Below are positions 7,272 to 29,006 of a stretch of DNA of 64,000 nucleotides, one piece after another. How positions within the stretch are numbered: the stretch's first letter is position 1; every line of letters starts with the position of its first letter. The stretch lies in the NCBI GenBank assembly GCA_016938685.1, contig JAFGUD010000510.1, positions 10,568 to 74,567 of the forward strand, written 5' to 3'. The notes beneath the pieces are model-generated. The model worked only from the letters and a program-made list of their open reading frames with translations, did no database searches and was not told where the DNA came from. Both the position numbers and the translations under genes were made by a program. This stretch comes from Bacteroidales bacterium (GTDB lineage Bacteria > Bacteroidota > Bacteroidia > Bacteroidales > JAFGUD01).

Positions 7272-7283
7272 CTGTTTAAATTT

Positions 7284-7318
7284 TGAATAATGAATAATGA
7301 ATATCGAATAATGAAGTG
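7284..7318. repeat. Heptamer tandem block (5 units: tgaataa tgaataa tgaatat cgaataa tgaagtg)
   Basis: Read directly. Begins 13 nt from the thiolase start codon. Confidence 0.9.
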
Positions 7319-7395
7319 AAATTTAATCATTTCCTTGTGTGTAAATAATTATTTTTACATGTTCGTTTCATCTGTTTATTTTTTTAATTAAAGAA

Positions 7396-7427
7396 GTTTT
7401 CGAGTTTACCAGTTTTCGAGTTTGATT
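7396..7427. repeat. Octamer tandem block (gttttcga gtttacca gttttcga gtttgatt)
   Basis: Read directly. Same GTT..C.A word family as 17830-17965 and 24445-24532. Confidence 0.9.
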
Positions 7428-7453
7428 TATTTGAACAATCAATTATTAACCAT

Positions 7454-7495
7454 TAATTATTAATTCTTAGTTCTTAGCTCTTAATTATTTAATTA
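7454..7495. repeat. Heptamer tandem block (taattat taattct tagttct tagctct taattat ttaatta)
   Basis: Read directly. Ends at the base before the HADH stop codon (7496-7498). Confidence 0.85.
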
Positions 7496-8836
7496 TTAGT
7501 TTTTCAAAAAGTCATTTATTGGACCATAAGCGTGGAAAAATCCGGTCATTAGAACAGTATTTACATCATCTACGCTAAATGCAACTTTTGTATCAACTAA
7601 TTTTTGTCCAATTTTTCTTGAGCATTCCATATATCTCTTAGTTAAATCAGCTCCGAGAGTTTTCATACCTGAAACTTCATTAAACATTTCGCCTAAAACC
7701 TCCATTTTGTTTTTCATTCTAAGAGTAGATTTCCAAGCAACAGTTTTTTCAGGAAGATTTCCTATTCTCTTATCTGCATTTTCTTGAAAGCTTTCAAACA
7801 TTACATATTGTTTAGAATTAATGTCGTAAATAGCAATCGGTCTGCCTCTATCGTATTTAAGGAAACCATCTTTTTGAGAACCGTCGGAATTTTGTCCACC
7901 TTTAACACCTATTTCCATCATTTTGTCTAACAAATCACTATGTAAATCTTCATCAGCAAGATAAGGGTTCATAACACTCATAATATACTGACAAACATCA
8001 ACCCCCACATAATCAATAAGTTGAAAAATACCCATTGGGCGAACCATAAATTCCTGCGAAACTCTGTTTACTGTATAAAGTGCTTCTGCATATGGCATTT
8101 CTGCGGTAAGTCTTTGTACTTCATTTATTCCATGAATAGCATCGCGCATAAAATGTCCATTTCCAATAAATCCTGCGAAATCATTAGAAGGAACAACTAC
8201 TTTACCTAGATTTTTTGCATATTCTACGGCAAAAGTTTCTATTTCGGGCAATGTGTTTTCGCCTTTTATTAGCTCCACAAGTTTTTGAATAGCCGGTGGA
8301 TTATAAAAATGGAATCCTATCACTTTTCCGCCTAATTGTGCACTTTTGTCAAGATTTGAAATTGGAATTGAAGAAGTATTTGAAAAAAACCAGGTTTCTG
8401 CTGCACAATTTTCACGAACCTGAGTTAAAAGTTTTGTTTTAAGAGCGGGATTTTCAATAACAGCTTCAAAAACAATATTTGAATCATAAGCAGATTCTAA
8501 TCTTGTAGTTGGTCTTACAATTTTTAGCACATCCCAAACATATTGTTCAATAATGTCAAAATTTTCAACTAAATCAGCTCTATCTGCATATAAACCTCTA
8601 AGGGAAACCATCTTTTTTTCACCAATTTTTTTGGCTTGTACCCTTAAATAATCCATTAAACCGGTTAAACACTCCGAACAAACATCTATTGCGTTTAAAA
8701 CATAATGTTTGTTTTTATTTTCAGGTTTGAGGCTTAAATCAGCCATTTCAATTGCTGTTAAAAGTAAAATACCACTCCCCATTTTACCGGCAGCCCCAAT
8801 TACTGAAACTTTTTGTAAACGTTCTGAATATTCCAT
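7496..8836 (-). CDS. 3-hydroxyacyl-CoA dehydrogenase family protein
   Basis: N-terminal Rossmann VSVIGAAGKMGSGI; HFYNP and IGNGHF-type motifs of the HADH family; 446 aa. Confidence 0.85.
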   Translation of the reverse strand: MEYSERLQKVSVIGAAGKMGSGILLLTAIEMADLSLKPENKNKHYVLNAIDVCSECLTGLMDYLRVQAKKIGEKKMVSLRGLYADRADLVENFDIIEQYVWDVLKIVRPTTRLESAYDSNIVFEAVIENPALKTKLLTQVRENCAAETWFFSNTSSIPISNLDKSAQLGGKVIGFHFYNPPAIQKLVELIKGENTLPEIETFAVEYAKNLGKVVVPSNDFAGFIGNGHFMRDAIHGINEVQRLTAEMPYAEALYTVNRVSQEFMVRPMGIFQLIDYVGVDVCQYIMSVMNPYLADEDLHSDLLDKMMEIGVKGGQNSDGSQKDGFLKYDRGRPIAIYDINSKQYVMFESFQENADKRIGNLPEKTVAWKSTLRMKNKMEVLGEMFNEVSGMKTLGADLTKRYMECSRKIGQKLVDTKVAFSVDDVNTVLMTGFFHAYGPINDFLKN

Positions 8837-8872
8837 AATTTCTGAATTTTTATATATCTAATTAAACTAATA

Positions 8873-8880
8873 CAAATATA
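8873..8880 (-). promoter_or_regulatory. -7 box TATATTTG upstream of the HADH gene
   Basis: Plus-strand caaatata, 37 nt upstream of start 8836. Confidence 0.5.
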
Positions 8881-8949
8881 GTAAACTTATTGTATTCAAA
8901 AAATTAATTATTATGGTTGAAAAAAAAATGTGATTTTTGCAGGAAAAAA

Positions 8950-9642
8950 ATGATTGACCCGATAAGATACCTATACGAAAATTATAGTTTTGAAAAGTCC
9001 CAAATAAGAGAATTAATTACCGGATTAAGATATTTAGCTGTTTTGCTAAAAAATGGGGAAATTGGTGTTTGCGCAACTTTGAGCAACGATTTTGATCTTT
9101 CCCTTGATGATTTTGACAAGCCCAATTTGAATGACTTTCGGCATCGAATTTTATTAAACGCGTACTATAATGCCATTTTTAATACTGAAAAAAATGACTA
9201 TAAATACGGAGATATTACTGAAATTATTGATTTTAAGAACATTAAAGATCTGGTTATGATTGGTTATTTCAGACCGGTTGTTGAAAAATTTCAAAAAGCA
9301 GGTATTAATGTTCATATTTTTGATTTAAAAAATAAAGAGGTAACCGTTCCAATGGAATTTCAAAAAAATTACCTAAAAAAATGCGATGCCGCAATAGTTA
9401 CGGCAACTACTTTTTATAACAATACTTTTTTGGATATTACTGAAAATTGCTCCGGCGACATCTACATTTTAGGACCTTCTACAATTATGCATCCCTATAT
9501 CTTTGAATTTAGTAATGTTAAATATTTATTTGGAAGCTTATTTGAAAGAAATGACAATAGAGTTCTTGATATTATTGGCCAAGACCTGGGAACAAGACAC
9601 TTTTTAAAATTAGGGAAGAAAGTTTTTTTGAATCAAGAATGA
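8950..9642 (+). CDS. DUF4213/DUF364 Rossmann-like protein (putative heavy-metal or cofactor chelation domain family)
   Basis: Family-like layout: N-terminal LITGLRYLAVLLKNGEIGVCATL, C-terminal Rossmann-like IGYF...AAIVTATT. The first ATG is at 8950; the ORF-track TTG at 8917 is less likely. Confidence 0.6.
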   Translation: MIDPIRYLYENYSFEKSQIRELITGLRYLAVLLKNGEIGVCATLSNDFDLSLDDFDKPNLNDFRHRILLNAYYNAIFNTEKNDYKYGDITEIIDFKNIKDLVMIGYFRPVVEKFQKAGINVHIFDLKNKEVTVPMEFQKNYLKKCDAAIVTATTFYNNTFLDITENCSGDIYILGPSTIMHPYIFEFSNVKYLFGSLFERNDNRVLDIIGQDLGTRHFLKLGKKVFLNQE

Positions 9643-9852
9643 GTGAATGCTTGAATGATAGAATGAGTGAATGCTTGAATGATAAAATGATAAAATGATA
9701 AAATGATAGAATGATAGAATGATAGAATGATAGAATGATTAAATGATAAAATGATAGAATGAAGTCGGAAGTCAGCAGTAGACAGTTGGCAGTTTGTTGA
9801 AGACTGAGAACTGAAGACTGAAAGACTGAAAGACTGAAAGACTGAGAGATTG
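9637..9852. repeat. 27 phase-locked octamers (gaatgagt/gaatgctt/gaatgata/aaatgata ... gaagactg/aaagactg)
   Basis: Counted unit by unit: 216 nt = 27 x 8 with no indel. The first unit contains the TGA stop (9640-9642) of the upstream gene. The first 24 nt are duplicated exactly (9637-9660 and 9661-9684). Confidence 0.95.
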
Positions 9853-9853
9853 G

Positions 9854-10056
9854 GAACTCGAAACTCGGAACTGGGAACTCGGAACTCGAAACTCGAAACT
9901 GGGAACTCGGAACTGGGAACTCGGAACTCGAAACTCGAAACTCGAAACTCGGAACTCGGAACTGGGAACTGGGAACTCGGAACTCGGAACTCGGAACTGG
10001 GAACTCGAAACTCGAAACTCGGAACTCGGAACTCGGAACTGAGGACTGAAAGACTA
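9854..10056. repeat. 29 phase-locked heptamers (gaactcg/aaactcg/gaactgg ... gaactga ggactga aagacta)
   Basis: Counted unit by unit: 203 nt = 29 x 7. Ends 6 nt before ATG 10063. Confidence 0.95.
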
Positions 10057-10062
10057 AAAAAA

Positions 10063-11757
10063 ATGGAATTATATAAAAATAAAACAAAAACAATTTGGTA
10101 TAAAGCCGCTGCTTTGGGAAGTATTTGGGCGAGTTTTGAAATTGTACTCGGAAGTTTTTTGCACAATGTTCGTTTTCCTCTCTCCGGAACGTTATTAGCT
10201 ACTTTAGGAGTGATTTTAATGATAACTTTTGCTCAACTTTGGAACGAAAAAGGACTTTTTATTAAAGCTGGTCTTATTGCTGCGCTTATGAAATCAATTT
10301 CTCCAAGTGCAATTCTTATAGGACCAATGACAGGCATTTTTATCGAAGCTTTATTCGTTGAAATAAGCATTTTCCTAATCGGTAGAAATATATTTGGATA
10401 TTTAATAGCCGGAATTACAGCCCTGTACAGTGTTGTTATTCATAAAGTTGCAACATTACTTATTTTGTACGGCTTTGACATTGTCAGAATTACCGAAAAC
10501 TTGTATTTTTTCCTATCTAAACAACTAAACATAAACAATTTAAGTTTTTTAAACGCTCTCTTAATTTTAAGTTTTGCTTATGTAATATTAGGATTTTTTG
10601 CTGCTTTAATAGGCTTCTACACTGGAAAAATAACAAAACAAAGTAACAAAAACAATTTAGAGTTTAATGTAAAAGGATTCAAAAAAGATTTTTTAGACAT
10701 CAAAACAACTCAAAAATTTTCAGTTTATTTTTTGATATTACACCTGATAACTATCACGTCTATTTTTATTATAATCAGCAACTTAGCATTAGAATTTTCT
10801 GTAATAATCAGCGTAATTTACTTGATTTTTTGTTTTTTTAGATACAAGTCAACTTTTAGACATTTTAAAAAGGTTGGTTTTTGGATACAAATTCTAATAA
10901 TACTAATTATTTCAGTACTTTTTTACAGCGGAGTTCAAAATCTTTCGTTATTAAATAAAGATGGCTTAATAGCTGGTTTGACAATGATTTTAAGAATGTT
11001 TGTACTTGTTGTTGGATTTGCAGCAATAAGTGTTGAATTAAGAAATCCGTTTGTAAAAGCTGTTTTATTCAGAAACGGTTTCGGCAATCTGTATCATTCT
11101 TTGGGACTTGCTTTTTCAATTTTGCCGGTATTAATGGAAAAAACGACAAATCCTAAAGTTCTTGTCAAACAGCCAAGAAAAAGCATAGTTTCAATAGTCC
11201 AAAATGCAAATTCAATATATGAAAATTTTGTTGAAAATATTAAGCAAAGAAAAGTTATCATAATAACCGGAGAAAGAGGCGAAGGGAAAAGCACATACTT
11301 GCTAAATCTGACTAAAATTCTGAAAGAAAAAGATGTTTCAATTGGTGGTTTTATTGCAAAAGGACACGTAAAAGAAGGAAAAAGAAGTGGCTTCTCTATT
11401 GTGGACTTACATTCAGGCAAAGAAATGTTGCTAAGTTCTGTTGAAAAAATAGGAGAAACAAAAATCGGAAAATTCTATTTTGATTCAAACGCATTAGAAT
11501 TTGGCAAAAATATTACTTCTTATGAAAACATTTCCAAAGACAGATTTGTTGTAATTGACGAAATTGGTCCATTGGAGTTAAAAAGTCAAGGTTGGTCTTC
11601 TGTTGTCGAACAAATTTTTGAATCGCCTGAAATAATGCAAATATGGGCAGTACGAAAAGATTTAGTAAACAGTGTTTTAAGAAGATTTGCTGTTTCGGAA
11701 GCTACAATTTTTGACATTAAAAATGATGATATTGAGTCGGTAATAGAAATAATTTAA
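10063..11757 (+). CDS. Polytopic membrane protein fused to a C-terminal P-loop NTPase (THEP1/DUF2478-like)
   Basis: Start placed at the first ATG (MELYKNK...); the 71 codons upstream merely translate the heptamer repeat. About 10 hydrophobic segments over ~400 aa. Walker A GERGEGKS and Walker B FVVIDEIGPLEL. Confidence 0.75.
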   Translation: MELYKNKTKTIWYKAAALGSIWASFEIVLGSFLHNVRFPLSGTLLATLGVILMITFAQLWNEKGLFIKAGLIAALMKSISPSAILIGPMTGIFIEALFVEISIFLIGRNIFGYLIAGITALYSVVIHKVATLLILYGFDIVRITENLYFFLSKQLNINNLSFLNALLILSFAYVILGFFAALIGFYTGKITKQSNKNNLEFNVKGFKKDFLDIKTTQKFSVYFLILHLITITSIFIIISNLALEFSVIISVIYLIFCFFRYKSTFRHFKKVGFWIQILIILIISVLFYSGVQNLSLLNKDGLIAGLTMILRMFVLVVGFAAISVELRNPFVKAVLFRNGFGNLYHSLGLAFSILPVLMEKTTNPKVLVKQPRKSIVSIVQNANSIYENFVENIKQRKVIIITGERGEGKSTYLLNLTKILKEKDVSIGGFIAKGHVKEGKRSGFSIVDLHSGKEMLLSSVEKIGETKIGKFYFDSNALEFGKNITSYENISKDRFVVIDEIGPLELKSQGWSSVVEQIFESPEIMQIWAVRKDLVNSVLRRFAVSEATIFDIKNDDIESVIEII

Positions 11758-11790
11758 TTTGTATTATGCTACTATTTTTTCAACTTTAAT

Positions 11791-12123
11791 TTAGCTGGAA
11801 TCACGATTATATTCTACAAATGTATATTTCCCACAAACAGGACATAAAAATTCTCCAAAAGTATCATCAACTCCCATATCATAAGGCTGATAATGATACC
11901 AAAGACATTTAATCTCTTTGCTGGCGCAATCTTCATTGCCACATTCAAATTGATCTGCAATCCACCGAAAATAAATTAAATCACCTTGCCTTTTTAGGTA
12001 ATCCTGATAACTAAAAGGAGTTTGACGCTCATTTTCAGGTGATTGAGGCGTATCATTAACCCAAATTTTAGCTCCTTTTCTAACAAAATGATTTCCGGGA
12101 TTTTTTAAATAAAAATACTTCAT
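11791..12123 (-). CDS. Hypothetical Cys-rich protein (possible zinc-ribbon, CPVCG near the C-terminus)
   Basis: 110-aa ORF with normal-looking composition and no recognisable family. Confidence 0.5.
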   Translation of the reverse strand: MKYFYLKNPGNHFVRKGAKIWVNDTPQSPENERQTPFSYQDYLKRQGDLIYFRWIADQFECGNEDCASKEIKCLWYHYQPYDMGVDDTFGEFLCPVCGKYTFVEYNRDSS

Positions 12124-12249
12124 AATTTTTTATTAAAACCATAACTACAGGTTACGAATAATTTACAGTCAAAATTACAGATTTTTTCAAATTTAGTGAT
12201 ATAAAAACGGCAACAAGGTTACCTTTAAAAAACAACTCTGAATTGTAAG

Positions 12250-12663
12250 CTATTTTAAAAACTTATCTTTAAACAAAACATAATGTTCGTCCATTATTTT
12301 ATCAGCCTCATAAGAATATTTAGCCCCATTTTCGTATATAAATTCTCCAGATATTTCAAATCCATTTTCTGAGATCATACCGGAAAAACTTAAAATTAAA
12401 TCATTTACCGAAAAAGAAACATTTTCATCACTAATTTTAACATCATTCATTTCATAAATTACTTCATATTTTCCCTTCTCTAAAATTGCAAAAGAGCCAG
12501 AATATTTATTTTTTTTTATTGTCTTAAACTGTAAGACATGTACTTTTGTCAAACTATCAGATAATTTTTCAACCCAAAAAGCAGCGTGCGTATCTTCATT
12601 GACTTCTGTGCCACAGCTTAAAAATAAGAAAAAAGTGAGCGTTAAAAACAATATTGATTTCAT
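12250..12663 (-). CDS. Hypothetical lipoprotein
   Basis: Signal peptide with lipobox (FLFLSCGTE); 137 aa. Confidence 0.6.
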   Translation of the reverse strand: MKSILFLTLTFFLFLSCGTEVNEDTHAAFWVEKLSDSLTKVHVLQFKTIKKNKYSGSFAILEKGKYEVIYEMNDVKISDENVSFSVNDLILSFSGMISENGFEISGEFIYENGAKYSYEADKIMDEHYVLFKDKFLK

Positions 12664-12814
12664 AGCTTATTCTTTTGATTTTTGTAAAATTAAGCAAAAA
12701 ACATTCAAAAATCACCATTATTTTACGAGAAGATAAACAAACTTTCGGCCATAACAGTCATAACAATTTCCAAACCTCCAATTGCTGTGGTGTTATGTTT
12801 TTTTAATTAATTTG

Positions 12815-13267: not shown

Positions 13268-13454
13268 ATACGTGTTTTTAAAAGTTGTATTGTGTTTTTT
13301 ATGTTCAATTTTTTATGTTAGCTAGCATTTTTCTCACATAAGATATCTAAATGTCAAAGTTAAATATTTTTCCCGAAAAATCATATATCAAAAACCACTT
13401 TTATGACATAATTCGCGAAAATTATTCAGTTTTTATTCCCTAAACCTGCATCAA

Positions 13455-15085: not shown

Positions 15086-17830
15086 ATGCCAAGTTATTTT
15101 AAAGTCTTAATTTTCATATTATTATGTTCGTCAGAATTCTCCATTTTTGCACAAGATGATATAATTTCTGTTTCGTCCGACAATCAATATATTGCAATTT
15201 TACAAAAACAAAAACGACTTAGAGATACTATTTATATAAAAGACACAACAAACTACAATACATCTACAATGCTACTGTACGACGCTTCAATAGAGATTTA
15301 TGAACCTTCGACAGGAAATAATATTCAAATTCTTCAACTTAAAACTAAAAGAAAAAATAAAGTTACAAGTGCTTTTTTTAGTAAAAATAAATTTATTTTT
15401 TGCGTAAACGATCAGGGAACTAAACATGTTTGGAATGTTCCGTCCGGCAAAAAAATTAAAACCGTTGAAGCTGACACAATTATACTTTCAAATATTGCAA
15501 ATTCTTTTTATGCACAAAAAAACAACCGCATAATTAAACATTCTTATTATTACAACACAAGCAAAGAATACAAAATCCCGGAAGATAATCCAATCACTAA
15601 AATAGGAATTACTTCTGATGATAAATTTTTATTAGCAAAAGGCAACGAAGATAAAATTTACATTTGGAATATTCGTTCTTCAAATGATGAAATAACAACT
15701 ATTTTCGGCGAGGATTTTTCTACAGATGATCAAGGTAATTTTTTCATTAGCAAATATTATAAAGGAACTGTAAATATTTCAAAATTTAATGCGGAAACTA
15801 ATGATTTAGAGTACAATAAAGAAAGAAATATCAACAGCAAAACGTATGTAAAACCAAGTAAAGTAATCAAAAGAAAGGTAAAAAAAGACCAATCGGAGTT
15901 TAGTCCTGACGGAAAATATTACACTTACACTTGGCGTCAAGGATTTTCTAAAAACATTACAACTATTAATCTACAGACCGGAACAAAGGTTTACGAAACA
16001 AAAAAAGACTTCAAAAAATATAACAAAACAACTCCATATTTCTACAACGACTCTATTTGTATGCTTCAAAAAGACGACAAAACTGTTAGTATTTTTGATT
16101 TAAACACTAATAAAGTAATTGACGAAGTTTCTTACTCTAAAAAAATTGAACCATCACAAATATTATTTGACCAAAAAGCTGTTGCAATTATTGATGAAAA
16201 CAGAAAAATTCTGGCTGTAAAAGATGAGGAAAACATTAAAGAAATTGAAGGTTATATTCCAATAAAAGGTTTAAACAATACAAACGAATTTTATTTTGCA
16301 AAAAACAAAAAAAACGAACTTGAATACTTTCCTGTTAAAAATATAATGAACGATAGTTCAAATTTAGTTCTCGAAGAACCGAAAAAGAAAAATCTGAAAA
16401 TTAAACAAGAATTTCAAAAATTCAGACTTGACACAAATTCTTATGTTTCAATCAACGATTTATCGCATGTTTCCAAAGCAAAAGACACAACAACTCATTT
16501 GGTTGTAAAATCAGTTCAAATTGGCGAAGATTTTACCGGTTTGCAGTTTTACGTTCTTGATGACAATAATAATTTCTACTACGGAATTTCAGAAGAAAAC
16601 TGGCAAAATGTTATTTGCGGAGTAACTATTGAAAATGAATACGGAGAAATTATGCCGATTGACGACTATCAAATAATGGAATATAGCGAAAAACAAGGAA
16701 CTCCGGTAGCAATGTGTTTTGTGCTCGATCACAGCGGTTCAATGGGAACTACAAACGCAACTCTTATGCAACAAGGTCTTTTGAGTTTGGCTAACAAAGT
16801 TAAAGGAAACGAAGGTATTGCAATTGTTAAGTTTGATGAAGACATTGAAACTACTGTAGAAATGACAGGAAAAACATCAACAGTTGCCAAAGAATTTGAG
16901 GTAAAAGGACTTGACGGTTTTGGTGGTGCCACTGCCCTACTCGATGGTATTAATCAAGGATTAGATGTTTTAATAGAAAGCGACAAATATCAAAATAAAG
17001 CTCTTGTTGTACTTACCGACGGCTACGAAAATTCTTCATCTTCAACAAAAAATCAGGTTTTGCTCAAAGCAATGCAAAATAACATTGGAATATACGCAAT
17101 TGGTTATGGTTCTAATATTGACGTTGAATTTTTGAAATCTATTTCGACAAATACAAGTGGTGGTTATTACTGGATTAACAACAACAACATGTTTGATGAC
17201 GTATTTGAAGATGTGTACAAAAACATGAAAAACTATTACACTATCAATTTCAACACGCCTTATCCGGGTTTGTACAAAATAAAACTTGAACTTTGCCTTG
17301 AAGATTCTTACGATAGTGTTGTTTATTACTTCGACAATTATGTGCCAAACATATTATTTACAAACGAGCGCAACGAATATGATTCTTTGTTTGAAGTAAT
17401 TACAGGGATTGGCGACACAATTACTCTCGATAATTTTAATTCTTATAAAATATACAAAGACATTCAATTTGTTGAGTACAAAAAAGAATTTGACTCTATT
17501 ATTTTTCCCGACATAAAATTTTATTTTGATGAAACCAGAATTGTTGAAGGTACTGATAAAGAGCTTATAAACGTGATCAATTTCATGAAAAAATATCCGC
17601 AATTACGCATTGAAATACAAGGACATACTGACAGTAAAGGAGGTTTATTATACAACGAAAAACTGTCGCAAGCCAGAGCCGAAAAAGTTCGTCAAATTAT
17701 GGTTGATGCGGGAATTGAAGCTCAAAGAATTAGAACAATAGGTTACGGCGAAACAAAACCGATAGACACAAATGACACAGACGAAGGACGACAAGAAAAC
17801 CGAAGAGTTGAGTTTTTGCTGATAAAATAG
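15086..17830 (+). CDS. Secreted beta-propeller-like + VWA + OmpA-C-terminal domain protein
   Basis: Signal peptide; MIDAS motif VLDHSGSMG; C-terminal OmpA peptidoglycan-binding motif (IEIQGHTDSKG...NEKLSQARA...NRRVEF). Confidence 0.8.
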   Translation: MPSYFKVLIFILLCSSEFSIFAQDDIISVSSDNQYIAILQKQKRLRDTIYIKDTTNYNTSTMLLYDASIEIYEPSTGNNIQILQLKTKRKNKVTSAFFSKNKFIFCVNDQGTKHVWNVPSGKKIKTVEADTIILSNIANSFYAQKNNRIIKHSYYYNTSKEYKIPEDNPITKIGITSDDKFLLAKGNEDKIYIWNIRSSNDEITTIFGEDFSTDDQGNFFISKYYKGTVNISKFNAETNDLEYNKERNINSKTYVKPSKVIKRKVKKDQSEFSPDGKYYTYTWRQGFSKNITTINLQTGTKVYETKKDFKKYNKTTPYFYNDSICMLQKDDKTVSIFDLNTNKVIDEVSYSKKIEPSQILFDQKAVAIIDENRKILAVKDEENIKEIEGYIPIKGLNNTNEFYFAKNKKNELEYFPVKNIMNDSSNLVLEEPKKKNLKIKQEFQKFRLDTNSYVSINDLSHVSKAKDTTTHLVVKSVQIGEDFTGLQFYVLDDNNNFYYGISEENWQNVICGVTIENEYGEIMPIDDYQIMEYSEKQGTPVAMCFVLDHSGSMGTTNATLMQQGLLSLANKVKGNEGIAIVKFDEDIETTVEMTGKTSTVAKEFEVKGLDGFGGATALLDGINQGLDVLIESDKYQNKALVVLTDGYENSSSSTKNQVLLKAMQNNIGIYAIGYGSNIDVEFLKSISTNTSGGYYWINNNNMFDDVFEDVYKNMKNYYTINFNTPYPGLYKIKLELCLEDSYDSVVYYFDNYVPNILFTNERNEYDSLFEVITGIGDTITLDNFNSYKIYKDIQFVEYKKEFDSIIFPDIKFYFDETRIVEGTDKELINVINFMKKYPQLRIEIQGHTDSKGGLLYNEKLSQARAEKVRQIMVDAGIEAQRIRTIGYGETKPIDTNDTDEGRQENRRVEFLLIK

Positions 17831-17965
17831 TTGGTGAGTTATCGAGTTGTTGAGTTATCGTGTTATCGAGTGGTCGAGTTATCGGGTTATCGAATTGTCG
17901 GGTTGTCGAGTTATTGAGTTATTGAGTTGTCGAGTTGTCGAGTTGTCGAGTTGTCGAGTAGACAG
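17830..17965. repeat. 17 phase-locked octamers (gttatcga/gttgtcga/gttattga family)
   Basis: Counted unit by unit: 136 nt. The first unit starts on the G of the TAG stop (17828-17830). Ends with gtagacag. Confidence 0.95.
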
Positions 17966-18026
17966 CAATCAATCAAATATTTGCAAAAAAAACATCAGTA
18001 TTAACTAAAAATCATTCAATTCACTA

Positions 18027-21251: not shown

Positions 21252-21629
21252 ATGAATTTAAGAACCCAAACAAAATATGCCGTTTATACTATTTCAGTTT
21301 TGATAGCTTCATTTATGAGATTGGTTGTTGGAAAAATTATAAGTCGGTACATAAACGAAGCTTCGTATTTGTCAGTTCTGATAGACATGTTGGTAATAAT
21401 TCTGGTTTTTATCCCCGTCATAAGAATATTTGAAAAATTCACGATGAAGGCAACAAAAACCTATTTAGATTCAGCAAAAAAAATCTCAAAAAACAAAAGA
21501 AAAGGACTTTGGTGGGCATTATTTTTTGCATTTTTTGTAATGTTTATACTTTTTGCAATAGTGAAATATAATCTAAATTTCATCAAAGATGCTTTTGAAT
21601 ACTTTAAACTGTTATTTGGGCAAACTTAA
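21252..21629 (+). CDS. Hypothetical small membrane protein (about 3 TM helices)
   Basis: 125-aa ORF with hydrophobic segments; no recognised family. Confidence 0.45.
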   Translation: MNLRTQTKYAVYTISVLIASFMRLVVGKIISRYINEASYLSVLIDMLVIILVFIPVIRIFEKFTMKATKTYLDSAKKISKNKRKGLWWALFFAFFVMFILFAIVKYNLNFIKDAFEYFKLLFGQT

Positions 21630-21728: not shown

Positions 21729-22928
21729 CTATTTAAAATCTAAAAGAAAATTTTCTAATATGATATGCTTAACCCCTTTATATGTATTTGGAGTTTGAAA
21801 ATCATCATAAGAAATTACATATTTAGGATAATTATCTTTGATTTCCAACAAGTTTCCAAATTCACGTTTTATTGTAGAGTCATCATTGAGTAAATATGCT
21901 ACTTGAAAGTATGATGTTTCATTATCTTTTTGAGCGATAAAGTCAATTTCTTTTTTTTGATTTTGTCCTACAAACACTTCATAACCTAAAATTAAAAGGT
22001 GATTATAAACAGCATTTTCAATATTCTTATTTATTTGATTAGGCTTAAAACCTGTTAAGGCATTTCTTATTCCTAAATCCTCGAAATATAATTTTTCTCC
22101 AATTTCAAAGATTCGTTTCCCTTGAATATCATATCTTTTAGCATTATTAATAAAAAACGCCTCCAAAAGATAATTGATATAAGAAGATACAACAGGAACT
22201 GATTTTTTCATGTTCTGAGATTTTAAAAAATCACTGATATTTTTAACAGAAAATAAACAGCCTGTGTTGTCTGCTAAAAATTCAATTAGATTCTCCAAAA
22301 AAGTAACATCTCTTATTTTGTGTCTCGTAATTATATCTCTAAATAAAATTGTAGCATAAATATTTTTTAGATATTCTGAAACAACAAGTTTTTCACTCTG
22401 TAAGTTTATTAAAAAAGGTAAACCGCCATAAGTCAAATAATTAAACAAATTTTCTTTTGAGCTTTTCTTATCATGAAATATTAAATATTCTGAATAAGAT
22501 AATGGATGTATTCTAATTAAAATTTGACGACCACTTAGTAATGTTGCAAACTCGCCAGAAAGCACAGTAGCATTACTCCCTGTACAATAAATATCAAAAT
22601 CTTCACGTCTTAGCAAACTTCTAAGAGCTTTTTCAAAATCGTCAATCTCCTGAATTTCATCTATAAATAAATAGTTCATTCCATTTTTTTGTTGGCTCTC
22701 AACATACAACATCAAGTCATCATAAGTTTTTATCTTATCAAATTCATGCAATTCTTTATCAATTAGTATAAAATTTGCTTCCGGATTCTGTTCTTTCAAA
22801 AATTCTAAAATCTGTTTTAGCATAAAACTTTTCCCAACTCTTCTTTGCCCTATCAACACTTTTATCAATTGTTTGTTTACAAAAGGTACGATTCTATCTA
22901 GATATATTGGACGAATTATGTTTTTCAT
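21729..22928 (-). CDS. AAA-family ATPase with DUF4143 C-terminal domain (COG1373 type)
   Basis: Walker A GQRRVGKS and Walker B YLFIDEIQ; C-terminal region with a nuclease-fold-like EIDFI motif; 399 aa. Confidence 0.8.
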   Translation of the reverse strand: MKNIIRPIYLDRIVPFVNKQLIKVLIGQRRVGKSFMLKQILEFLKEQNPEANFILIDKELHEFDKIKTYDDLMLYVESQQKNGMNYLFIDEIQEIDDFEKALRSLLRREDFDIYCTGSNATVLSGEFATLLSGRQILIRIHPLSYSEYLIFHDKKSSKENLFNYLTYGGLPFLINLQSEKLVVSEYLKNIYATILFRDIITRHKIRDVTFLENLIEFLADNTGCLFSVKNISDFLKSQNMKKSVPVVSSYINYLLEAFFINNAKRYDIQGKRIFEIGEKLYFEDLGIRNALTGFKPNQINKNIENAVYNHLLILGYEVFVGQNQKKEIDFIAQKDNETSYFQVAYLLNDDSTIKREFGNLLEIKDNYPKYVISYDDFQTPNTYKGVKHIILENFLLDFK

Positions 22929-22964: not shown

Positions 22965-23027
22965 TTAAAAGTTTAAAATATACTATAAACTTTTTTAAAA
23001 AATTATTTTCCTTAAAATATAAGCAGA

Positions 23028-23058
23028 TAAAAAAAGCCTATTGAAAAATCAACAGGCT
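23028..23058 (-). terminator. Rho-independent terminator after ugd
   Basis: Stem gcctattga (23036-23044) / tcaacaggc (23049-23057) with one mismatch, followed on the minus strand by a T-run (A-run 23028-23035 on the plus strand). Confidence 0.7.
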
Positions 23059-23098
23059 ATCATTATTTAATTACGAAGAGACTTAAGTATTTTATTAA

Positions 23099-24418
23099 TT
23101 ATATTCTCCTACCAATTCCATAATAAACAAAACCATTTTCCATTACTTCTTTGGGTTCATAAATATTTCTACCATCAAAAATAACTTTTTCTTTTACAAT
23201 TTTAGATAAAATGTTGTAATTCAACATCTTAAACTCATTCCACTCTGTTACCAACAAAACCGCATCGGCATCATTTGCAGCATCGTACTGGTCTTTTGAA
23301 TATTCAATAACATCACCAATTCTACGTTTAGTTTCTGGCATAGAAACAGGATCGTAACCTTTTACTTTTGCTCCGGCTTCGATAAGTTTTTCAATAATAA
23401 CTAACGCCGGTGCTTCGCGCATATCGTCTGTGTTTGGTTTAAAAGCTAAACCCCAAAGTGCAATTGTTTTTCCTTTTATATCACCATTAAAATGAACTAA
23501 AAGTTTGTCAACAAGAATGCTTTTTTGAGCATCATTTACGTCTTCAACAGATTGAATAACATTCATTGGAACTCCATTTTCATTACCTGTTCTGATAAGA
23601 GCTTTTACGTCTTTTGGAAAACAAGATCCGCCATAACCAGTACCTGCGTACAAAAATTTGCTTCCAATACGAGTATCAGAGCCAATTCCGCGACGAACAC
23701 TGTTTACATCTGCTCCAACTTTTTCACACAACTGAGCAATTTCGTTCATGAAACTGATTCTGGTTGCCAACATTGCATTTGCAGCGTATTTTGTTAGTTC
23801 AGCCGAAGGAATATCCATGAATAAAATCGGATGATTATTCAACAAAAATGGTTTGTAAAGCTTTCGCATTACCTCTGTTGCTTGTTCTGTATCAGTTCCA
23901 ATTACAATTCTGTCGGGTTTCATAAAATCAAGAATTGCGTCACCTTCTTTTAAAAATTCAGGATTTGAGGCAACATCAAATTTATAATCAACACCTCTTT
24001 TGTCTAATTCTGCCTGCAAAGCTCCACGAACTTTCTCTGCTGTGCCAACAGGAACTGTACTTTTAGTTACAACAACCATATAATGATCCATTGTTTTTCC
24101 TATGCTTCGGGCAACTTCAAGAACATATTTTAGGTCAGCACTTCCGTCTTCGTCAGGAGGTGTACCAACGGAAATAAAAGCAACATCAGCACCAACAATG
24201 CTTTCATTAATATCTGTTGAGAACCAAAGTCTTTTTTTCTCAACATTTTTTTCGATCATGGCATCTAAACCGGGTTCGTAAATAGGAACGATTCCGTTTT
24301 TTAAATTGTCAATTTTTTGTTGGTCAATATCAACACAACATACATTAACTCCTGTTTCGGCAAAACATGTGCCCGTAACAAGTCCAACGTATCCTGTTCC
24401 AACTACTGAAATTTTCAT
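23099..24418 (-). CDS. ugd: UDP-glucose 6-dehydrogenase
   Basis: MKISVVGTGYVGLVTG (NAD fold) and catalytic GGSCFPKD; 439 aa. Confidence 0.92.
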   Translation of the reverse strand: MKISVVGTGYVGLVTGTCFAETGVNVCCVDIDQQKIDNLKNGIVPIYEPGLDAMIEKNVEKKRLWFSTDINESIVGADVAFISVGTPPDEDGSADLKYVLEVARSIGKTMDHYMVVVTKSTVPVGTAEKVRGALQAELDKRGVDYKFDVASNPEFLKEGDAILDFMKPDRIVIGTDTEQATEVMRKLYKPFLLNNHPILFMDIPSAELTKYAANAMLATRISFMNEIAQLCEKVGADVNSVRRGIGSDTRIGSKFLYAGTGYGGSCFPKDVKALIRTGNENGVPMNVIQSVEDVNDAQKSILVDKLLVHFNGDIKGKTIALWGLAFKPNTDDMREAPALVIIEKLIEAGAKVKGYDPVSMPETKRRIGDVIEYSKDQYDAANDADAVLLVTEWNEFKMLNYNILSKIVKEKVIFDGRNIYEPKEVMENGFVYYGIGRRI

Positions 24419-24420
24419 AT

Positions 24421-24588
24421 TATTAAGTTTATTAAGTTTATAAAGTTATCGAGTTAATCAGTTATCGAGTTAACCAGTTTGCCAGTTAACCAGTTATCGA
24501 GTTAACCAGTTTACCAGTTTACCAGTTAACCGGTGTTTAGTTTATAGTTAATTTTCAAATCACCAAATTTTCAAATCATCAAATCAAA
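24421..24588. repeat. Tandem mosaic: 2 nonamers (gtttattaa gtttataaa), about 12 GTT-anchored octamers (gttatcga/gttaacca/gtttacca...), 4 CAAAT-anchored octamers
   Basis: Read directly. Starts 3 nt from the ugd start codon (24416-24418) and extends to the distal -7-like box. Confidence 0.9.
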
Positions 24589-24592
24589 AATA
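24585..24592 (-). promoter_or_regulatory. -7-like box TATTTTTG at the distal edge of the repeat array upstream of ugd
   Basis: Plus-strand caaaaata. If used, the whole array would be a ~165-nt 5' leader. Confidence 0.35.
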
Positions 24593-24721
24593 TAGTATTT
24601 GAAAACCATTAATTTAAACTATTCTACAAAAATGGTTAAATTTTATTTTTTAACAAATTTGCGATAAATAATTAAACTTAAAAATGACAAAAATCGTATT
24701 GATAATTGCGAAAAATCAGGT

Positions 24722-24757
24722 ATAAAAAAACCCGCAACTTTTTAGAAGCGGGTTTTA
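24722..24757 (-). terminator. Rho-independent terminator after the COG2403/CPGS-like gene
   Basis: Stem cccgc (24731-24735) / gcggg (24748-24752), extended by A/T pairs. T-run follows on the minus strand. Confidence 0.8.
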
Positions 24758-24780
24758 AATTATAAATTATCAACTGTAAT

Positions 24781-26115
24781 TTATTTTACATATTTTGCAA
24801 CAAATTCGTCAATAACTTGTGTTAAATTAGGCTCACCAATTTCTTGAAGATCATAATATACACGTGTATTTGGTTTGTTGATTTTAATAATACGGTTCAA
24901 GTCAATTGGAGTACCAATAACTACTGAGTCACAATCTGTATTGTTGATTGATTTTTCAAGGTCAGCAACTTGTTGGTCACCATAACCCATTGCAGGAAGA
25001 AGAGTTCCAATATTTGGATAAATTTTGAAAGTTTCTGCCAATTTTCCAACAACAAAAGGACGAGGATCTACTAATTCAGCAGCACCGAATTTTTTAGCAG
25101 CAACAGTACCTGCCCCAATTTTCATTTCGCCGTGAGTTAGAGTTGGTCCGTCTTCTACAACTAATACGCGTTTTCCTTTAATAAGCTCAGGATTATCAAC
25201 TTTAATAGGAGAAGCTCCGTCGATTACAATTGCATTTGGATTAATTTTAGCGATATTGTCACGAACTTTTTGGATTTTTTTAGGAGCAGCAGTTTCCATT
25301 TTGTTGATAACTATTACGTCAGAAATACGCATCATTGTTTCACCAGGGTAATAAGAAACTTCGTGTCCCGGTCTGTGTGGGTCAGCAACACAAACAGTTA
25401 AATCAGGTTTGTAGAATGGGAAGTCGTTATTTCCACCGTCCCAAAGAACAACATCACAACCATCAGGATCGTTTTCAGCAGCGCGAACGATTGCTTCATA
25501 ATCAACACCAGCATAAATTACGTTTCCACGAACTACGTGTGGTTCATACTCTTCCATTTCTTCGATTGTACATTTGTGAAGTTTTAAATCTTCAACAGTT
25601 GCAAAACGTTGAACTTTTTGAGCTACTAAATCACCATAAGGCATTGGGTGACGAACAGCAACAACTTTTAGTCCTTTTTCCATCAATAATTCGATGATTC
25701 TACGAGAAGTTTGGCTTTTGCCACAACCTGTACGAACAGCACCAACAGCAATAACAGGTTTTGTGCTTTTTACCATAGTTTCTTTTGTACCAAGAAGAAT
25801 AAAATCAGCTCCGGCAGCATTAACTTGTGCACTAATATTCATTACTCTTTTGTAAGGAACATCACTGTATGAAAATACACATTGGTCAACATCATGTTCT
25901 TTGATTATTTTTTCCAAATCACCTTGATCGAAAATTGGAATACCTGCAGGATATAATTTTCCGGCTAATTCAGCAGGATATTTACGACCATCAATGTCAG
26001 GAATTTGAGCAGCTGTAAAAGCAACTACGTTGAATGCTTCGTTATCTCTGTAATAAGTGTTAAAATTGTGGAAATCTCTACCGGCTGCGCCGATAATAAC
26101 TACATTTTTTTTCAT
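24781..26115 (-). CDS. Cyclic 2,3-diphosphoglycerate synthetase-like protein / COG2403 predicted P-loop NTPase
   Basis: N-terminal Rossmann-like VVIIGAAGRDFHNFN; P-loop VRTGCGKSQT; 444 aa. Family assignment is from memory of this architecture. Confidence 0.65.
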   Translation of the reverse strand: MKKNVVIIGAAGRDFHNFNTYYRDNEAFNVVAFTAAQIPDIDGRKYPAELAGKLYPAGIPIFDQGDLEKIIKEHDVDQCVFSYSDVPYKRVMNISAQVNAAGADFILLGTKETMVKSTKPVIAVGAVRTGCGKSQTSRRIIELLMEKGLKVVAVRHPMPYGDLVAQKVQRFATVEDLKLHKCTIEEMEEYEPHVVRGNVIYAGVDYEAIVRAAENDPDGCDVVLWDGGNNDFPFYKPDLTVCVADPHRPGHEVSYYPGETMMRISDVIVINKMETAAPKKIQKVRDNIAKINPNAIVIDGASPIKVDNPELIKGKRVLVVEDGPTLTHGEMKIGAGTVAAKKFGAAELVDPRPFVVGKLAETFKIYPNIGTLLPAMGYGDQQVADLEKSINNTDCDSVVIGTPIDLNRIIKINKPNTRVYYDLQEIGEPNLTQVIDEFVAKYVK

Positions 26116-26375
26116 AATTATTAAATTAAAAAGTTATTAATGTTTGTAAAGCTTGTAAAGAATATAATTCTACTTTTCCATTCTTCAACGTTATACTTTA
26201 CAAACTTCCAACTATGTTTCATGACAAAATTAAAGATTTTAAACAAATTCCAAATTTTATTAAATATTTTTAAAATAAAAACAAATAAAATACTGATAAT
26301 CAATAGATTAAATTAAAATGTTTTTAAGCTATTTAATACATGAGTAAAGTCATTTATCAATTTGGCAATAAGCTG

Positions 26376-26415
26376 ATTTGACGATTTTATAATTTGATGA
26401 TTTTAAAATTTAACA
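26376..26415. repeat. Short degenerate octamer run (atttgacg attttata atttgatg attttaaa atttaaca)
   Basis: Read directly. Five ATTT-anchored units. Confidence 0.6.
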
Positions 26416-26466
26416 AACGGAAAAATCAATTTTATATTAAGGAAGAAAATTATTGGTAAACTTTTC

Positions 26467-26474
26467 TACATTTG
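26467..26474 (+). promoter_or_regulatory. -7 box TACATTTG upstream of the MFS transporter gene
   Basis: 19 nt upstream of ATG 26493. Argues against the ORF-track TTG start at 26472. Confidence 0.5.
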
Positions 26475-26492
26475 CGGCGAAAATTTAACCGC

Positions 26493-27773
26493 ATGTTTTC
26501 AGCAAAAAACCTTACACCGGAGGAGAGCAAAACTTTCAAACTGCATGTCATTTATTCAATAATCGACGGAATTTTGTACGGAATACTGGCATTAAATGAA
26601 TTTATTTTGTTAAAAAGTCTGAAAGGAGCTGATTATCAAGTAGGTTTTTTGTTTATGTTACCTAATGTAGTATTACTTTTTGCTATTGTTTTTAATGAAC
26701 TCATAAAACGTACAGCACAGAAAAAAAAATTTCTAAATATTTTTACTGTTGTTACTCGCCTTCCTCTGCTGCTTGTGCTGTTTTTTCCAAATGATTTGAA
26801 AGAAATTACTGTTTTTCACCAATATACTTTTCTATTCATTTTGTTGATTTATTATTTTTCGACACCTGTTATTTTGCCAATGATAAACCTTTTTCTGAAA
26901 CAGGTTTACACACACAAAAACTTCGGAAAAATGTACAGTATTGCAACTTCGATAAGCAAAATTGCAGCTCTATTCAGCACTTTTTTTGCAGGTTTGATTC
27001 TGGATATTAACCAAATGTATTTTAGGCAATTATATATTGTTATGGCTGTCGGCGGAATAGCTTCTATTTTTATTCTAACACGTATTGATTTTCAAGACAG
27101 AACTCCTATTATCAAAAACACCATTTTAAAATCAATTGGTAAGTCTCTGAAAAGAATGAAGGATATTCTGGTGTCAAACAAACCTTTTTTACACTTTGAA
27201 ATAGGTTTTATGTTATATGGTCTTGCCTTTTTGACCACGAGCGGTGTAATTTCAGTTTTTCTAAATTCTCTTGACTTAAATTATTCATCTTTAGCTTTTT
27301 ACAAAAACGGGTACAATACAATAAACATTTTACTTTTGCCATTTTTCGGGAGACTAATCGGCAGAATTGACCCGAGAAAATTTGGAATTATTACATTTTC
27401 GTCACTTGCCGGATTTTTATTCTTTTTGTTTGTAACTACTTTTTTTGACGCTTATTTTGAGGTATGGAAAATTAAAGTCTATTATTCATTGCTGATTTCT
27501 TATGCATTCTATGGCGTTTTTTCTGCCACAATGGGACTTTTGTGGTTTATAGGTTCGGCATATTTCTCCAAAAACGAAGAAGCTGCCGATTATCAATCAA
27601 TTCATCTTTCGCTAACAGGAGTCAGAGGAACTTTTGCTCCGCTTGTTGGAATTTATTTTTACTTATTAATTGATTTTGGCGGTGTTTTTTTGATGGGTAT
27701 AGGATTTTTGAGTCTTGCTATACTAACATTGTTTATTTCTTTGAAACAAAGCAATCGAGTGTATAGTAATTAA
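26493..27773 (+). CDS. MFS-type transporter
   Basis: About 12 hydrophobic segments; ~426 aa from the first ATG. Confidence 0.7.
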   Translation: MFSAKNLTPEESKTFKLHVIYSIIDGILYGILALNEFILLKSLKGADYQVGFLFMLPNVVLLFAIVFNELIKRTAQKKKFLNIFTVVTRLPLLLVLFFPNDLKEITVFHQYTFLFILLIYYFSTPVILPMINLFLKQVYTHKNFGKMYSIATSISKIAALFSTFFAGLILDINQMYFRQLYIVMAVGGIASIFILTRIDFQDRTPIIKNTILKSIGKSLKRMKDILVSNKPFLHFEIGFMLYGLAFLTTSGVISVFLNSLDLNYSSLAFYKNGYNTINILLLPFFGRLIGRIDPRKFGIITFSSLAGFLFFLFVTTFFDAYFEVWKIKVYYSLLISYAFYGVFSATMGLLWFIGSAYFSKNEEAADYQSIHLSLTGVRGTFAPLVGIYFYLLIDFGGVFLMGIGFLSLAILTLFISLKQSNRVYSN

Positions 27774-27802
27774 GTTGTCGATTTGTTGAAATCAATGCTA
27801 GT

Positions 27803-27897
27803 TTATACTTGGAGAAATGTGGTGTTTTATTAGAGATTTCTCCAATAATAAAAAATTATACTTGGAGAAATGTAGTAACTTTAACCACATTTCTCCA
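27803..27897. repeat. Tandem pair of related stem-loops sharing an 18-nt direct repeat (ttatacttggagaaatgt)
   Basis: Direct repeat at 27803-27820 and 27856-27873. Hairpin 1: 27809-27818 / 27836-27845 (10 bp). Hairpin 2: 27863-27873 / 27887-27897 (11 bp). Alternative long-range pairing: 27811-27823 / 27884-27896 (13 bp). Lies between convergent genes. Confidence 0.8.
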
Positions 27898-27910
27898 GAT
27901 ATAGCTCAAT

Positions 27911-28951
27911 TTATCTCTTTAATTTTTCAACAATATCTGGCAATTTACTGATTATAAAATTCACATTTTCGTCTGTTATATCTTTATGTGTAACAAAACG
28001 ATACCAACCTAATTCTTTTGGATATGTAAGAATTCCATGACTGCCTAAAATTTTAAGGAAATCTGTTCTTTCCCCGATTTTAAGCTTCAAGAAAAACATA
28101 TTTGTTTTCACTTTTTCAATATTTACATCAAAGACATCATCGTATTTTGCGAATGCTTCGGCTAATTTACTAGCATTTTCATGGTCTTTATGTAATCGTT
28201 TGGTCATTTCTTGCAGAGAAATAAGTCCGGGAGCGGCCAAAACACCAACCTGACGCATTGCTCCGCCCATAATTTTTCTTTTGTATCTTGCTTTTGCAAT
28301 AAATTCTTTTGTTCCAACCAACATTGAACCAATTGGAGCAGCTAAACCTTTTGATAAACAAAACATTACAGAATCAGAATATTTTGCGATTTCTTTTGCT
28401 TCAACATTTAAGTATGTAGCAGCATTAAAAATTCTGGCTCCATCAAGATGAACAGAAAAACCAAATTTTTGTGCGTTTTCGTATATTTTTCGCATTTCGT
28501 CCAATGGCCAAACATCACCATTTCCGAGTGAATTTTGCACCCAAATCAGACTTGTTTTTGGGAAATGCAAATCCTCTTCAAATCTAATAAATTGTGTTAT
28601 TTCATCCCACGAAAACCATTGTTTTTCGGTTGTAACAATCCGCATGTTTACACCGGCAATAATAGCCGGAGCGCCTGCTTCGTGCTGAACAGGATGCGAA
28701 TCGTTTGAAATAACAACTTCATCACCACGATTGCAATGTGTAAACAAAGCAAGCTGATTTCCAAAAACTCCTGAAGGAACAAACAAAGCATCTTCTTTAC
28801 CGAGCATTTCGGCAGAAAGTTTTTGTAGTTCATTCACTGTTGGATCTTCTTGCATCATATCGTCACCAACTACTGCGTTTGCCATTGCTTGACGCATTTC
28901 GTTTGTTGGATGAGTTACTGTATCCGAACGTAAATCTATGTATGGAAGCAT
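27911..28951 (-). CDS. ltaE: Low-specificity L-threonine aldolase (PLP-dependent, beta-eliminating lyase fold)
   Basis: DLRSDTVT...DDMMQEDPTV...FCLSKGL (PLP lysine); 346 aa. Confidence 0.85.
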   Translation of the reverse strand: MLPYIDLRSDTVTHPTNEMRQAMANAVVGDDMMQEDPTVNELQKLSAEMLGKEDALFVPSGVFGNQLALFTHCNRGDEVVISNDSHPVQHEAGAPAIIAGVNMRIVTTEKQWFSWDEITQFIRFEEDLHFPKTSLIWVQNSLGNGDVWPLDEMRKIYENAQKFGFSVHLDGARIFNAATYLNVEAKEIAKYSDSVMFCLSKGLAAPIGSMLVGTKEFIAKARYKRKIMGGAMRQVGVLAAPGLISLQEMTKRLHKDHENASKLAEAFAKYDDVFDVNIEKVKTNMFFLKLKIGERTDFLKILGSHGILTYPKELGWYRFVTHKDITDENVNFIISKLPDIVEKLKR

Positions 28952-28963
28952 AATTAGTAAAAA

Positions 28964-29006
28964 GTTATAAAGTTGAAAGTTTGTTGTGCATTGTTAATTG
29001 TTCTTT
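28964..29006. repeat. Short degenerate GTT-anchored run (gttataaa gttgaaa gtttgtt gtgcatt gttaatt gttcttt)
   Basis: Read directly. Fills most of the 58-nt spacer between the folD stop and the ltaE start. Confidence 0.55.

Follow-up and report, generated by a model that had tools for sequence, protein, structure and literature searches.

Tandem arrays of 7-9-nt units in the gene spacers of an uncultured Bacteroidales bacterium: probable simple-sequence repeats oriented with transcription

Spacers between bacterial genes that are filled with short head-to-tail repeats raise the question of whether such DNA is a functional element or a product of replication that the genome tolerates. This question was addressed for a stretch of 64,000 nucleotides (nt; hereafter the window) of contig JAFGUD010000510.1, from the Bacteroidales assembly GCA_016938685.1, in which several spacers carry tandem arrays of 7-9-nt units. 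An earlier note, made from the letters alone, had counted at least seven such spacers and had assigned them to no described class of element. The obtained results showed that the arrays are real and that they are a kind of bacterial simple-sequence repeat already described. They are probably long simple-sequence-repeat arrays that originate from replication slippage, are tolerated in transcribed spacers and are filtered for orientation.

The arrays were detected by running Tandem Repeats Finder (TRF) on the window and by direct reading of the sequence (Table 1). Within the window TRF recovered the main arrays, with 0% indels in nearly all of them, so that phase was kept as the earlier note had described. 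In a periodicity test demanding at least 32 of 40 self-matches at a period of 7-9, 520 nt of the window passed, compared with 0 nt in all of 200 local shuffles. Four spacers held clear arrays, and a fifth contained a weak 16-nt unit. The two short runs that had also been counted (27774-27805 and 28964-29006) were not reported by TRF and resemble ordinary AT-rich spacer. The description of the spacers as built almost entirely of repeats applies to one of them (9643-10062, ∼98% array); in the other three the share was ∼69% (17831-18026), ∼52% (7272-7495) and ∼40% (24419-24780). Octamers were the commonest unit length (six of the nine non-redundant arrays), several unit lengths were joined within one spacer, and several arrays showed higher-order periods of 16, 24 or 32 nt. 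Array edges lay 0-12 nt from start or stop codons, which agrees with the proximity reported before. All arrays were located between open reading frames (ORFs) with Pfam-supported products and none was coding, as the note had judged; the C-terminus of DUF364 is intact, and the first array unit contains its stop codon.

The arrays are also present in independent data. Logan contig L001 (SRR13394436, an independent short-read assembly) is identical to the window, reads 70-90 nt into the 17.9-kb and 24.5-kb arrays and ends inside both. Because it matches exactly into the arrays, they exist in the reads, while the copy numbers themselves come from the GenBank contig only. A search for further strains found the organism's own proteins on record only in one short Logan contig, and when metagenomes were scanned with the NTPase protein, all matches were relatives at ∼50% identity.

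One word is shared among the arrays at 7.4, 9.9, 17.9 and 24.5 kb, and it is written most simply as AACTSG. It occurred in four of the nine non-redundant arrays, against ∼0.8% expected for a random unit. Identical words were reused at unlinked loci, as had been noticed: GTTATCGA at 17.8 and 24.4 kb, and GTTTACCA at 7.4 and 24.5 kb. The 9-mer AGTAGACAG was indeed present at 9777 and 17957, and only there, one such sharing being not improbable by chance. Other arrays in the AACTSG-bearing spacers were built on unrelated words (GAATGATA, TTATTCA and AATTATT).

The shared word follows the direction of the genes. AACTSG lay on the mRNA-sense strand in all three co-directional spacers, in keeping with the common strand of the earlier note, whose T-S-G-N-AAC is AACTSG read the other way. 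The 9.9-kb heptamer array appears reverse-complemented because its flanking genes are on the plus strand, and arrays only 3 kb apart on opposite strands are each oriented with their own genes. On the sense side, the arrays were rich in A and G (AT skew +0.23, GC skew +0.20), compared with values of -0.03 and +0.05 in array-free co-directional spacers. The tendency of a single orientation to persist, with the A/G-rich AACTSG strand in sense, suggests that a filter acts on transcription or on RNA. Minimum free energy z-scores of the arrays were inconsistent on sense and antisense strands (-2.6 to +4.3), and neither structure nor lack of structure was retained as a signature of the arrays. Sigma-70-like and terminator-like sites occurred at the level of shuffled sequence; Bacteroidetes-type promoters lie outside the models of the tool used. 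Resemblances to Myb sites, Chi sites and Rho rut sites were rejected, as they fit only a subset of the units. Confinement of the arrays to a 7-29-kb domain, as the earlier note proposed, was likewise rejected: arrays were found in 4 of 20 spacers, compared with 0 of 14 beyond 29 kb, which is no significant clustering (P ∼0.10).

Table 1. Repeat arrays of the window, with units in the sense orientation where so stated (copy numbers from TRF unless given as reading)
Array	Position	Strand	Unit and copy number	Placement
Heptamer	7284-7315	-	7 nt, ×4.6; sense TTATTCA-type	Ends 12 nt upstream of thiolase start codon (7271)
Octamer	7395-7423	-	8 nt, ×3.6; sense AACTCGAA AACTGGTA AACTCGAA, AACTSG core	
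AT-rich heptamer	7441-7498	-	7 nt, ×8	Adjoins 3-hydroxyacyl-CoA dehydrogenase stop codon (7496-7498)
Octamer	9637-9762	+	GAATGATT ×15.8, GAATGAKW; 24-nt higher-order period	Begins at DUF364 stop codon
Degenerate octamers, then octamer array	9763-9849	+	Degenerate octamers from 9763, then AAGACTGA ×6.5 at 9800-9849 (TRF and reading)	
Heptamer GRAACTS	9853-10056	+	GGAACTC ×26.9 (9853-10040); by reading ×27-29, to 10056; AACTSG core on sense strand	Last base 6 nt before NTPase ATG (10063)
Octamer	17830-17965	-	8 nt, ×15.5 (17836-17959), ×15.5-17 overall; minus strand AACTCGAY	Convergent spacer; adjoins plus-strand OmpA-family stop codon; 61 nt downstream of minus-strand CotH stop codon
Nonamer	24420-24447	-	9 nt, ×3.1; sense AACTTAATA ×3	
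Octamer	24444-24528	-	8 nt, ×10.6; sense AACTGGTT/AACTCGAT/AACTGGTA	Nonamer/octamer block 24420-24528 ends 2 nt upstream of UDP-glucose dehydrogenase ATG
16-nt unit	24550-24586	-	×2.2; sense GATTTGAA AATTTGGT; word related to array at 26376-26411	
Weak 16-nt unit (marginal member)	26376-26411	+	×2.2, score 58; GATTTGAC GATTTTAT...	∼60 nt upstream of MFS transporter gene, in sense orientation to it

The nearest protein relatives of the window are Bacteroidales metagenome-assembled genomes (MAGs), with identities of at most 81%, and several relatives were compared at the array-bearing spacers. The junction between DUF364 and the NTPase gene measures less than ∼15 nt in two distant relatives (L193, L194), 114 nt in a family-level relative (L125) and 420 nt here. 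The spacer between the 3-hydroxyacyl-CoA dehydrogenase (3HCDH) and thiolase genes is 59 nt (L122) and 98 nt (L123) long in two relatives, both free of a 7-8-mer array, 107 nt in L125 and 224 nt here; that of L125 contains a short degenerate run of sense heptamers (GAACTCG AAACCCG AAACCAG TAACTCA). In the closest relative for the UDP-glucose dehydrogenase region (L195), where the neighbouring CotH protein is 70% identical, no arrays were found in 8 kb. Alignment upstream of the UDP-glucose dehydrogenase gene showed that the terminator and a promoter-like block, TTAACCATTTTTG, are both conserved, and that in the window a ∼140-nt array block sits between the promoter-like block and the ATG. The arrays of this gene are therefore in its 5' leader. 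The conserved block itself, of the form ...ATTTG...ATAAAATTTAACCATTTTTG (window 24630-24700, minus strand; L195 300-330), is preceded by a conserved hairpin and a T-run, and is probably a Bacteroidetes-type promoter (TTTG / TAnnTTTG-like) next to the terminator of the upstream gene. Judged by these alignments, the arrays are lineage-specific expansions and not conserved elements.

The words themselves persist in the lineage. The MAG from which L125 comes (GCA_016936595.1, JAFGXO01) was also picked up independently by the pattern scan described below. Elsewhere in that genome, ∼30 sense units of AACTCGAW words (among them AAACTCAAT, AACTCGAA and AACTCGAT) occupy a co-directional spacer of 320 nt, and they end 9 nt before an ATG. 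As JAFGXO01 reuses the words elsewhere, the word family and its placement rules persist in the lineage while single arrays come and go. The sharing of words is specific to the genome or lineage and is not universal.

To place the word in a wider setting, the pattern AACTSGNN in four copies was scanned in one genome per GTDB species, with no control words, and gave at least 120 stretches. The matches listed come from Bacteroidota, Acidobacteriota, Chloroflexota, Planctomycetota, Pseudoalteromonas, Vibrio, Actinobacteria and others; among them the arrays have 4-86 units, one word often occurs at several loci of the same genome, and many 8-kb stretches also hold unrelated 7-9-nt arrays. In viral contigs, the AACTSG octamer pattern gave 11 stretches, compared with 17, 23 and 16 for three composition-matched control words. 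Octamer arrays of many words are thus common, and AACTSG is not special in the viral contigs. The idea of a universal AACTSG word across bacteria was dropped, since the viral controls were commoner and the genome scan was uncontrolled.

The orientation of 129 AACTSG octamer arrays among the matches listed, from many phyla and taken with AACTSG on the top strand, was then compared with crudely called flanking ORFs. Sense outnumbered antisense in co-directional spacers (38:15, P=0.002), convergent spacers outnumbered divergent ones (24:9, P=0.014), and the distance to the upstream stop codon was shorter than that to the downstream start codon. In the convergent and divergent spacers, orientation showed no association with local GC skew (16 of 33), which argues for a bias linked to transcription rather than to replication; an orientation set by the replicating strand was rejected on the same count.

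Several of the matches are of interest in their own right. Cultured Pseudoalteromonas sp. A601 (L019 4768-5459) carries a perfect octamer array of 86 units of GGCGAGTT, and related species carry 9-15 units of near-identical words; in Vibrio europaeus, AACTGGAT arrays occur at at least four loci (the set also comprises L046, L072, L097 and L100). These are cultured systems suited to studying the copy-number dynamics and function of octamer arrays. Two stretches (L037 690-745 and L051 1166-1400) contain a head-to-head pair of same-word arrays in opposite orientation within one spacer, an arrangement that does not occur in the window and that could form a long hairpin or cruciform. Four Prevotellaceae/Bacteroidaceae MAGs (L013, L052, L071 and L107) have AACTCGTC octamer arrays within long sense ORFs, again by crude calling. 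These may be phase-variable genes of the frameshift type or artefacts of ORF calling, the latter because the unit has no stop codon in any frame.

Bacterial intergenic repeats have been described in several families, and the claim that no known class fits the arrays did not hold, as long simple sequence repeats (LSSR), the short tandemly repeated repetitive (STRR) sequences of cyanobacteria, TAACTGA repeats and GGGNATC repeats share their placement rules. LSSR, with units of 5-11 nt, were catalogued in 2007 (Mrazek, Guo and Shah; summarised in PMC4679880). As that summary presents them, they resemble the arrays in having head-to-tail 7-9-nt units beyond chance length, a mainly intergenic position, a patchy distribution across lineages and an attribution to polymerase slippage; heptamers are the commonest there, whereas octamers are the commonest here, several unit lengths occur joined in one spacer and the arrays come from a low-GC Bacteroidales that is uncultured. 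The arrays of the window, 30-190 nt long at a period of 7-9, exceed the length given by a random model for units of 1-11 nt, and their units fall within 5-11 nt and lie outside coding sequence.

TAACTGA arrays stand in forward orientation a few nucleotides upstream of start codons (MacGregor, 2015; PMC4679880). Long mosaics of different heptamers occupy intergenic regions in the Bacteroidetes Gramella, Aequorivita and Elizabethkingia, and the counterparts of these regions in the closest relatives are short and free of repeats (PMC4679880). S1, cold-shock or CsrA-like proteins have been proposed, speculatively, as binders of TAACTGA repeats. The arrays described here likewise form forward intergenic mosaics that fill spacers near start codons and are absent from close relatives. 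Three ATGs are preceded, at distances of 12, 6 and 2 nt, by the end of a sense-oriented array, and TAACTCGA and TAACTGGT are TAACTGA plus one base. The unit here, in contrast, has 8 nt (AACTSGNN) or 7 nt (GRAACTS), and several arrays adjoin stop rather than start codons. TAACTGA itself occurs in the window as nine scattered single copies (11.3 expected), none of them in tandem.

For the GGGNATC and GGGGAYT heptamers of Xanthomonas and Nostoc, a preference for spacers between aligned ORFs and a deficit between divergent ones have been described (Rehm, 2015; PMC4692102). These repeats lie within ∼50 bp of ORF ends (stop codons), with a preference for the sense strand; they are transcribed, and their length differs extensively between close relatives (PMC4692102). 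The arrays of the window share the co-directional preference, the avoidance of divergent spacers, the placement at ORF ends and the lack of a functional theme among flanking genes. They differ in that GGGNATC repeats contain G-tracts, can potentially form quadruplexes and occur preferentially in four copies, while the units here (GRAACTS, AACTSGNN and GAATGATA) lack regular tracts of three G and reach 16-29 copies.

The STRR sequences of heterocystous cyanobacteria are genome-wide intergenic tandem heptamers in which a few words are reused, namely CCCCAGT, TTGGTCA and CAACAGT. The arrays differ from them in words, unit length and phylum, the host being a Bacteroidales and not a cyanobacterium. 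Taken together, the arrays fit the definition of LSSR and share the placement rules of the TAACTGA, GGGNATC and STRR families, while their words fall outside the sequence definitions of these three; most likely, they are of the same general kind as the STRR heptamers and the TAACTGA repeats. The exclusions made by the earlier note stood. The arrays are not clustered regularly interspaced short palindromic repeats (CRISPR), which have 25-40-nt repeats and unique spacers, as their units are contiguous. Neither are they repetitive extragenic palindromic sequences or bacterial interspersed mosaic elements (REP/BIME), as no inverted repeats were detected in three of the array spacers and only weak AT-rich ones in the others. 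The Rfam and tRNA scans of the window gave no matches.

A slippage origin is favoured because of the retention of phase, the higher-order periods, the runs of identical units, the rapid gain and loss between relatives and the expansion of tiny junctions. Units of 7-9 nt would be generated and resized by slipped-strand mispairing during replication, and slips of several units would give the 16-, 24- and 32-nt periods. MutS-dependent mismatch repair does not handle loops as large as 7-9 nt; this repair being bypassed, gains and losses of whole units would dominate and phase would be kept. Point substitutions would accumulate in the units and would then be copied. Expansion would occur where extra transcribed DNA is tolerated, here at two co-directional junctions, one 5' leader and one convergent 3' region, with divergent, promoter-bearing spacers avoided. 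The arrays would be transcribed as part of the mRNA, which is suggested by their placement between co-directional genes or between a promoter-like block and an ATG. The simplest explanation for the words shared between loci and with the relative would be a family of dispersed repeats specific to the lineage, whose members the same slippage or recombination process keeps alike. Effects on expression, if any, may take the form of lost translational coupling, a longer leader or copy-number tuning.

Several observations weigh against slippage as a sufficient account. The relative that keeps the words has a protein identity of only 52-76% and carries them at sites that are not orthologous, which is not an obvious outcome of purely neutral slippage starting from random seeds. 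Five of the seven positions are invariant in the 27-unit heptamer array, a pattern that fits constraint and equally just two mutational events. Unit variants are interspersed rather than arranged in clean blocks, with neighbouring units barely more similar than by chance; the drift along arrays that had been claimed was weakly significant in one array and not elsewhere. The orientation statistics depend on ORFs that were called crudely in contigs without annotation, and copy-number instability is inferred rather than observed.

In one alternative the arrays are functional cis-elements. Here the tandem AACUSG units in leaders and intercistronic RNA would be a platform for a lineage-specific single-strand-binding protein, through which translation or stability would be set for the flanking genes; the word would be conserved by selection for this binding. 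The sense orientation in all three co-directional spacers, with ends 2-12 nt from start codons, the cross-genome sense bias, the same word and grammar at another locus of the relative, and an AACT..G core that is invariant while other positions vary are consistent with it. In the Nostoc recO upstream region, moreover, deletion of start-proximal heptamer repeats is reported to have altered reporter output (10.1101/2022.06.06.494920, preprint). On the other side, closer relatives have no arrays in the orthologous spacers, the flanking genes are functionally unrelated, unrelated words occupy the same spacers, neither strand has a consistent structural signature, and across genomes the arrays lie nearer the upstream stop than the downstream start codon. 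We know of no binding protein for any such repeat family, and counted this against such a role as well. A regulatory role is somewhat favoured by the persistence of the word across genera and by the invariant core, and we nevertheless consider functional cis-elements of this sort rather unlikely. A more specific version appears doubtful: the AACTSG arrays might be transcribed-strand tandem platforms for a single-strand nucleic-acid-binding protein of this Bacteroidales lineage, with selection keeping the word across genera and loci and imposing the sense-strand rule, and would then constitute a post-transcriptional regulon tunable by copy number.

The arrays might instead act on DNA as contingency loci, in which the gain or loss of copies alters the geometry or spacing of the promoter and thereby switches envelope genes (UDP-glucose dehydrogenase, CotH and OmpA-family). 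Units whose length is not divisible by three, and a hypermutable tandem structure, are typical of such loci, and these three flanking genes are related to the envelope or surface. The metabolic genes for thiolase and NTPase are flanked equally, however, and the arrays, which lie outside ORFs, follow the conserved promoter-like block instead of separating promoter elements. At co-directional junctions or after stop codons, arrays of 15-29 units cannot act through promoter spacing, and divergent promoter spacers are avoided. This explanation is therefore improbable.

That the arrays are the remnants or cargo of a small mobile element resembling a miniature inverted-repeat transposable element (MITE), which spread the word family between spacers, is very improbable. 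The same words at unlinked loci, and the 9-mer shared at the edge of two arrays, would be expected of it; that single 9-mer is compatible with chance, the array edges match stop and start codons rather than element ends, and the five spacers examined showed no terminal inverted repeats, conserved flanks, conserved boundary sequence or target duplications. An assembly artefact, with repeats collapsed or invented in a metagenome-assembled contig of an uncultured organism, is hardly credible given the identical Logan contig, the like arrays in isolate genomes and in other assemblies of many phyla (including the relative MAG) and the interspersed unit variants, which collapse would not be expected to yield, even though the de Bruijn assembly of SRR13394436 breaks inside two arrays, which are hence hard to assemble and whose exact copy numbers may be wrong.

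With long simple-sequence repeats produced by slippage as the preferred explanation, the arrays belong to one of the few abundant and patterned features of bacterial intergenic DNA, tandem arrays of 7-9-nt units, that are without an accepted function. A 2025 survey reported a high density of short tandem repeats in Bacteroidota (PMC12699852), and the window adds an octamer-rich example from an uncultured member of the Bacteroidales. The points of note are the sense-strand rule, the persistence of words at the level of the lineage and the clear inflation of junction and leader. The comparative evidence for the last of these is direct: a co-directional junction that measures a few nt in relatives has reached 420 nt here, and a 5' leader is longer by ∼140 nt. 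The cross-phylum data hint at an orientation that goes with transcription and not with replication. Should the orientation rule hold genome-wide, together with the persistence of lineage words, an RNA-level filter or a binding factor would be worth seeking. In practice, such arrays break short-read assemblies and inflate ORF calls. The latter is seen at 9850-10062 (plus strand), where the automated ORF list puts the NTPase start 213 nt too far upstream, at a spurious TTG at 9850 within the heptamer array, because the tandem arrays there have no stop codons; two antisense ORFs of 173-177 aa also traverse the arrays.

The window has a GC content of ∼31%, and its host is an uncultured low-GC member of the Bacteroidales (Bacteroidota) that encodes sorting domains of the type IX secretion system (T9SS). 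The Pfam-supported genes that flank the arrays encode 3HCDH, thiolase, DUF364, NTPase, OmpA-family, CotH and UDP-glucose dehydrogenase proteins, among which no common functional theme was apparent.

Other features of the window were noted as well. An AAA_14/DUF4143 ATPase gene (21729-22928, minus strand) and a 125-aa ORF (21252-21629, plus strand) separate the UDP-glucose dehydrogenase gene from an epimerase gene; the segment 21252-22928 looks like an insertion, because L195 has only a 351-nt spacer between these two genes. In the convergent spacer after the MFS gene (27825-27905), two copies of a direct repeat, TATACTTGGAGAAATGT(G/A)GT, lie ∼50 nt apart, and an inverted copy, CCACATTTCTCCAG, pairs with the second as a hairpin. 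This feature, possibly a terminator or small repeat element, bears no relation to the arrays of 7-9-nt units. Finally, a giant ORF of 4303 aa (49269-62180, minus strand) with Laminin_G_3, F5/8 type C and MAM-like domains probably encodes a giant secreted adhesin or lectin-like protein, and downstream of it lies the gene of a 782-aa T9SS-sorted PKD protein (46900-49248).

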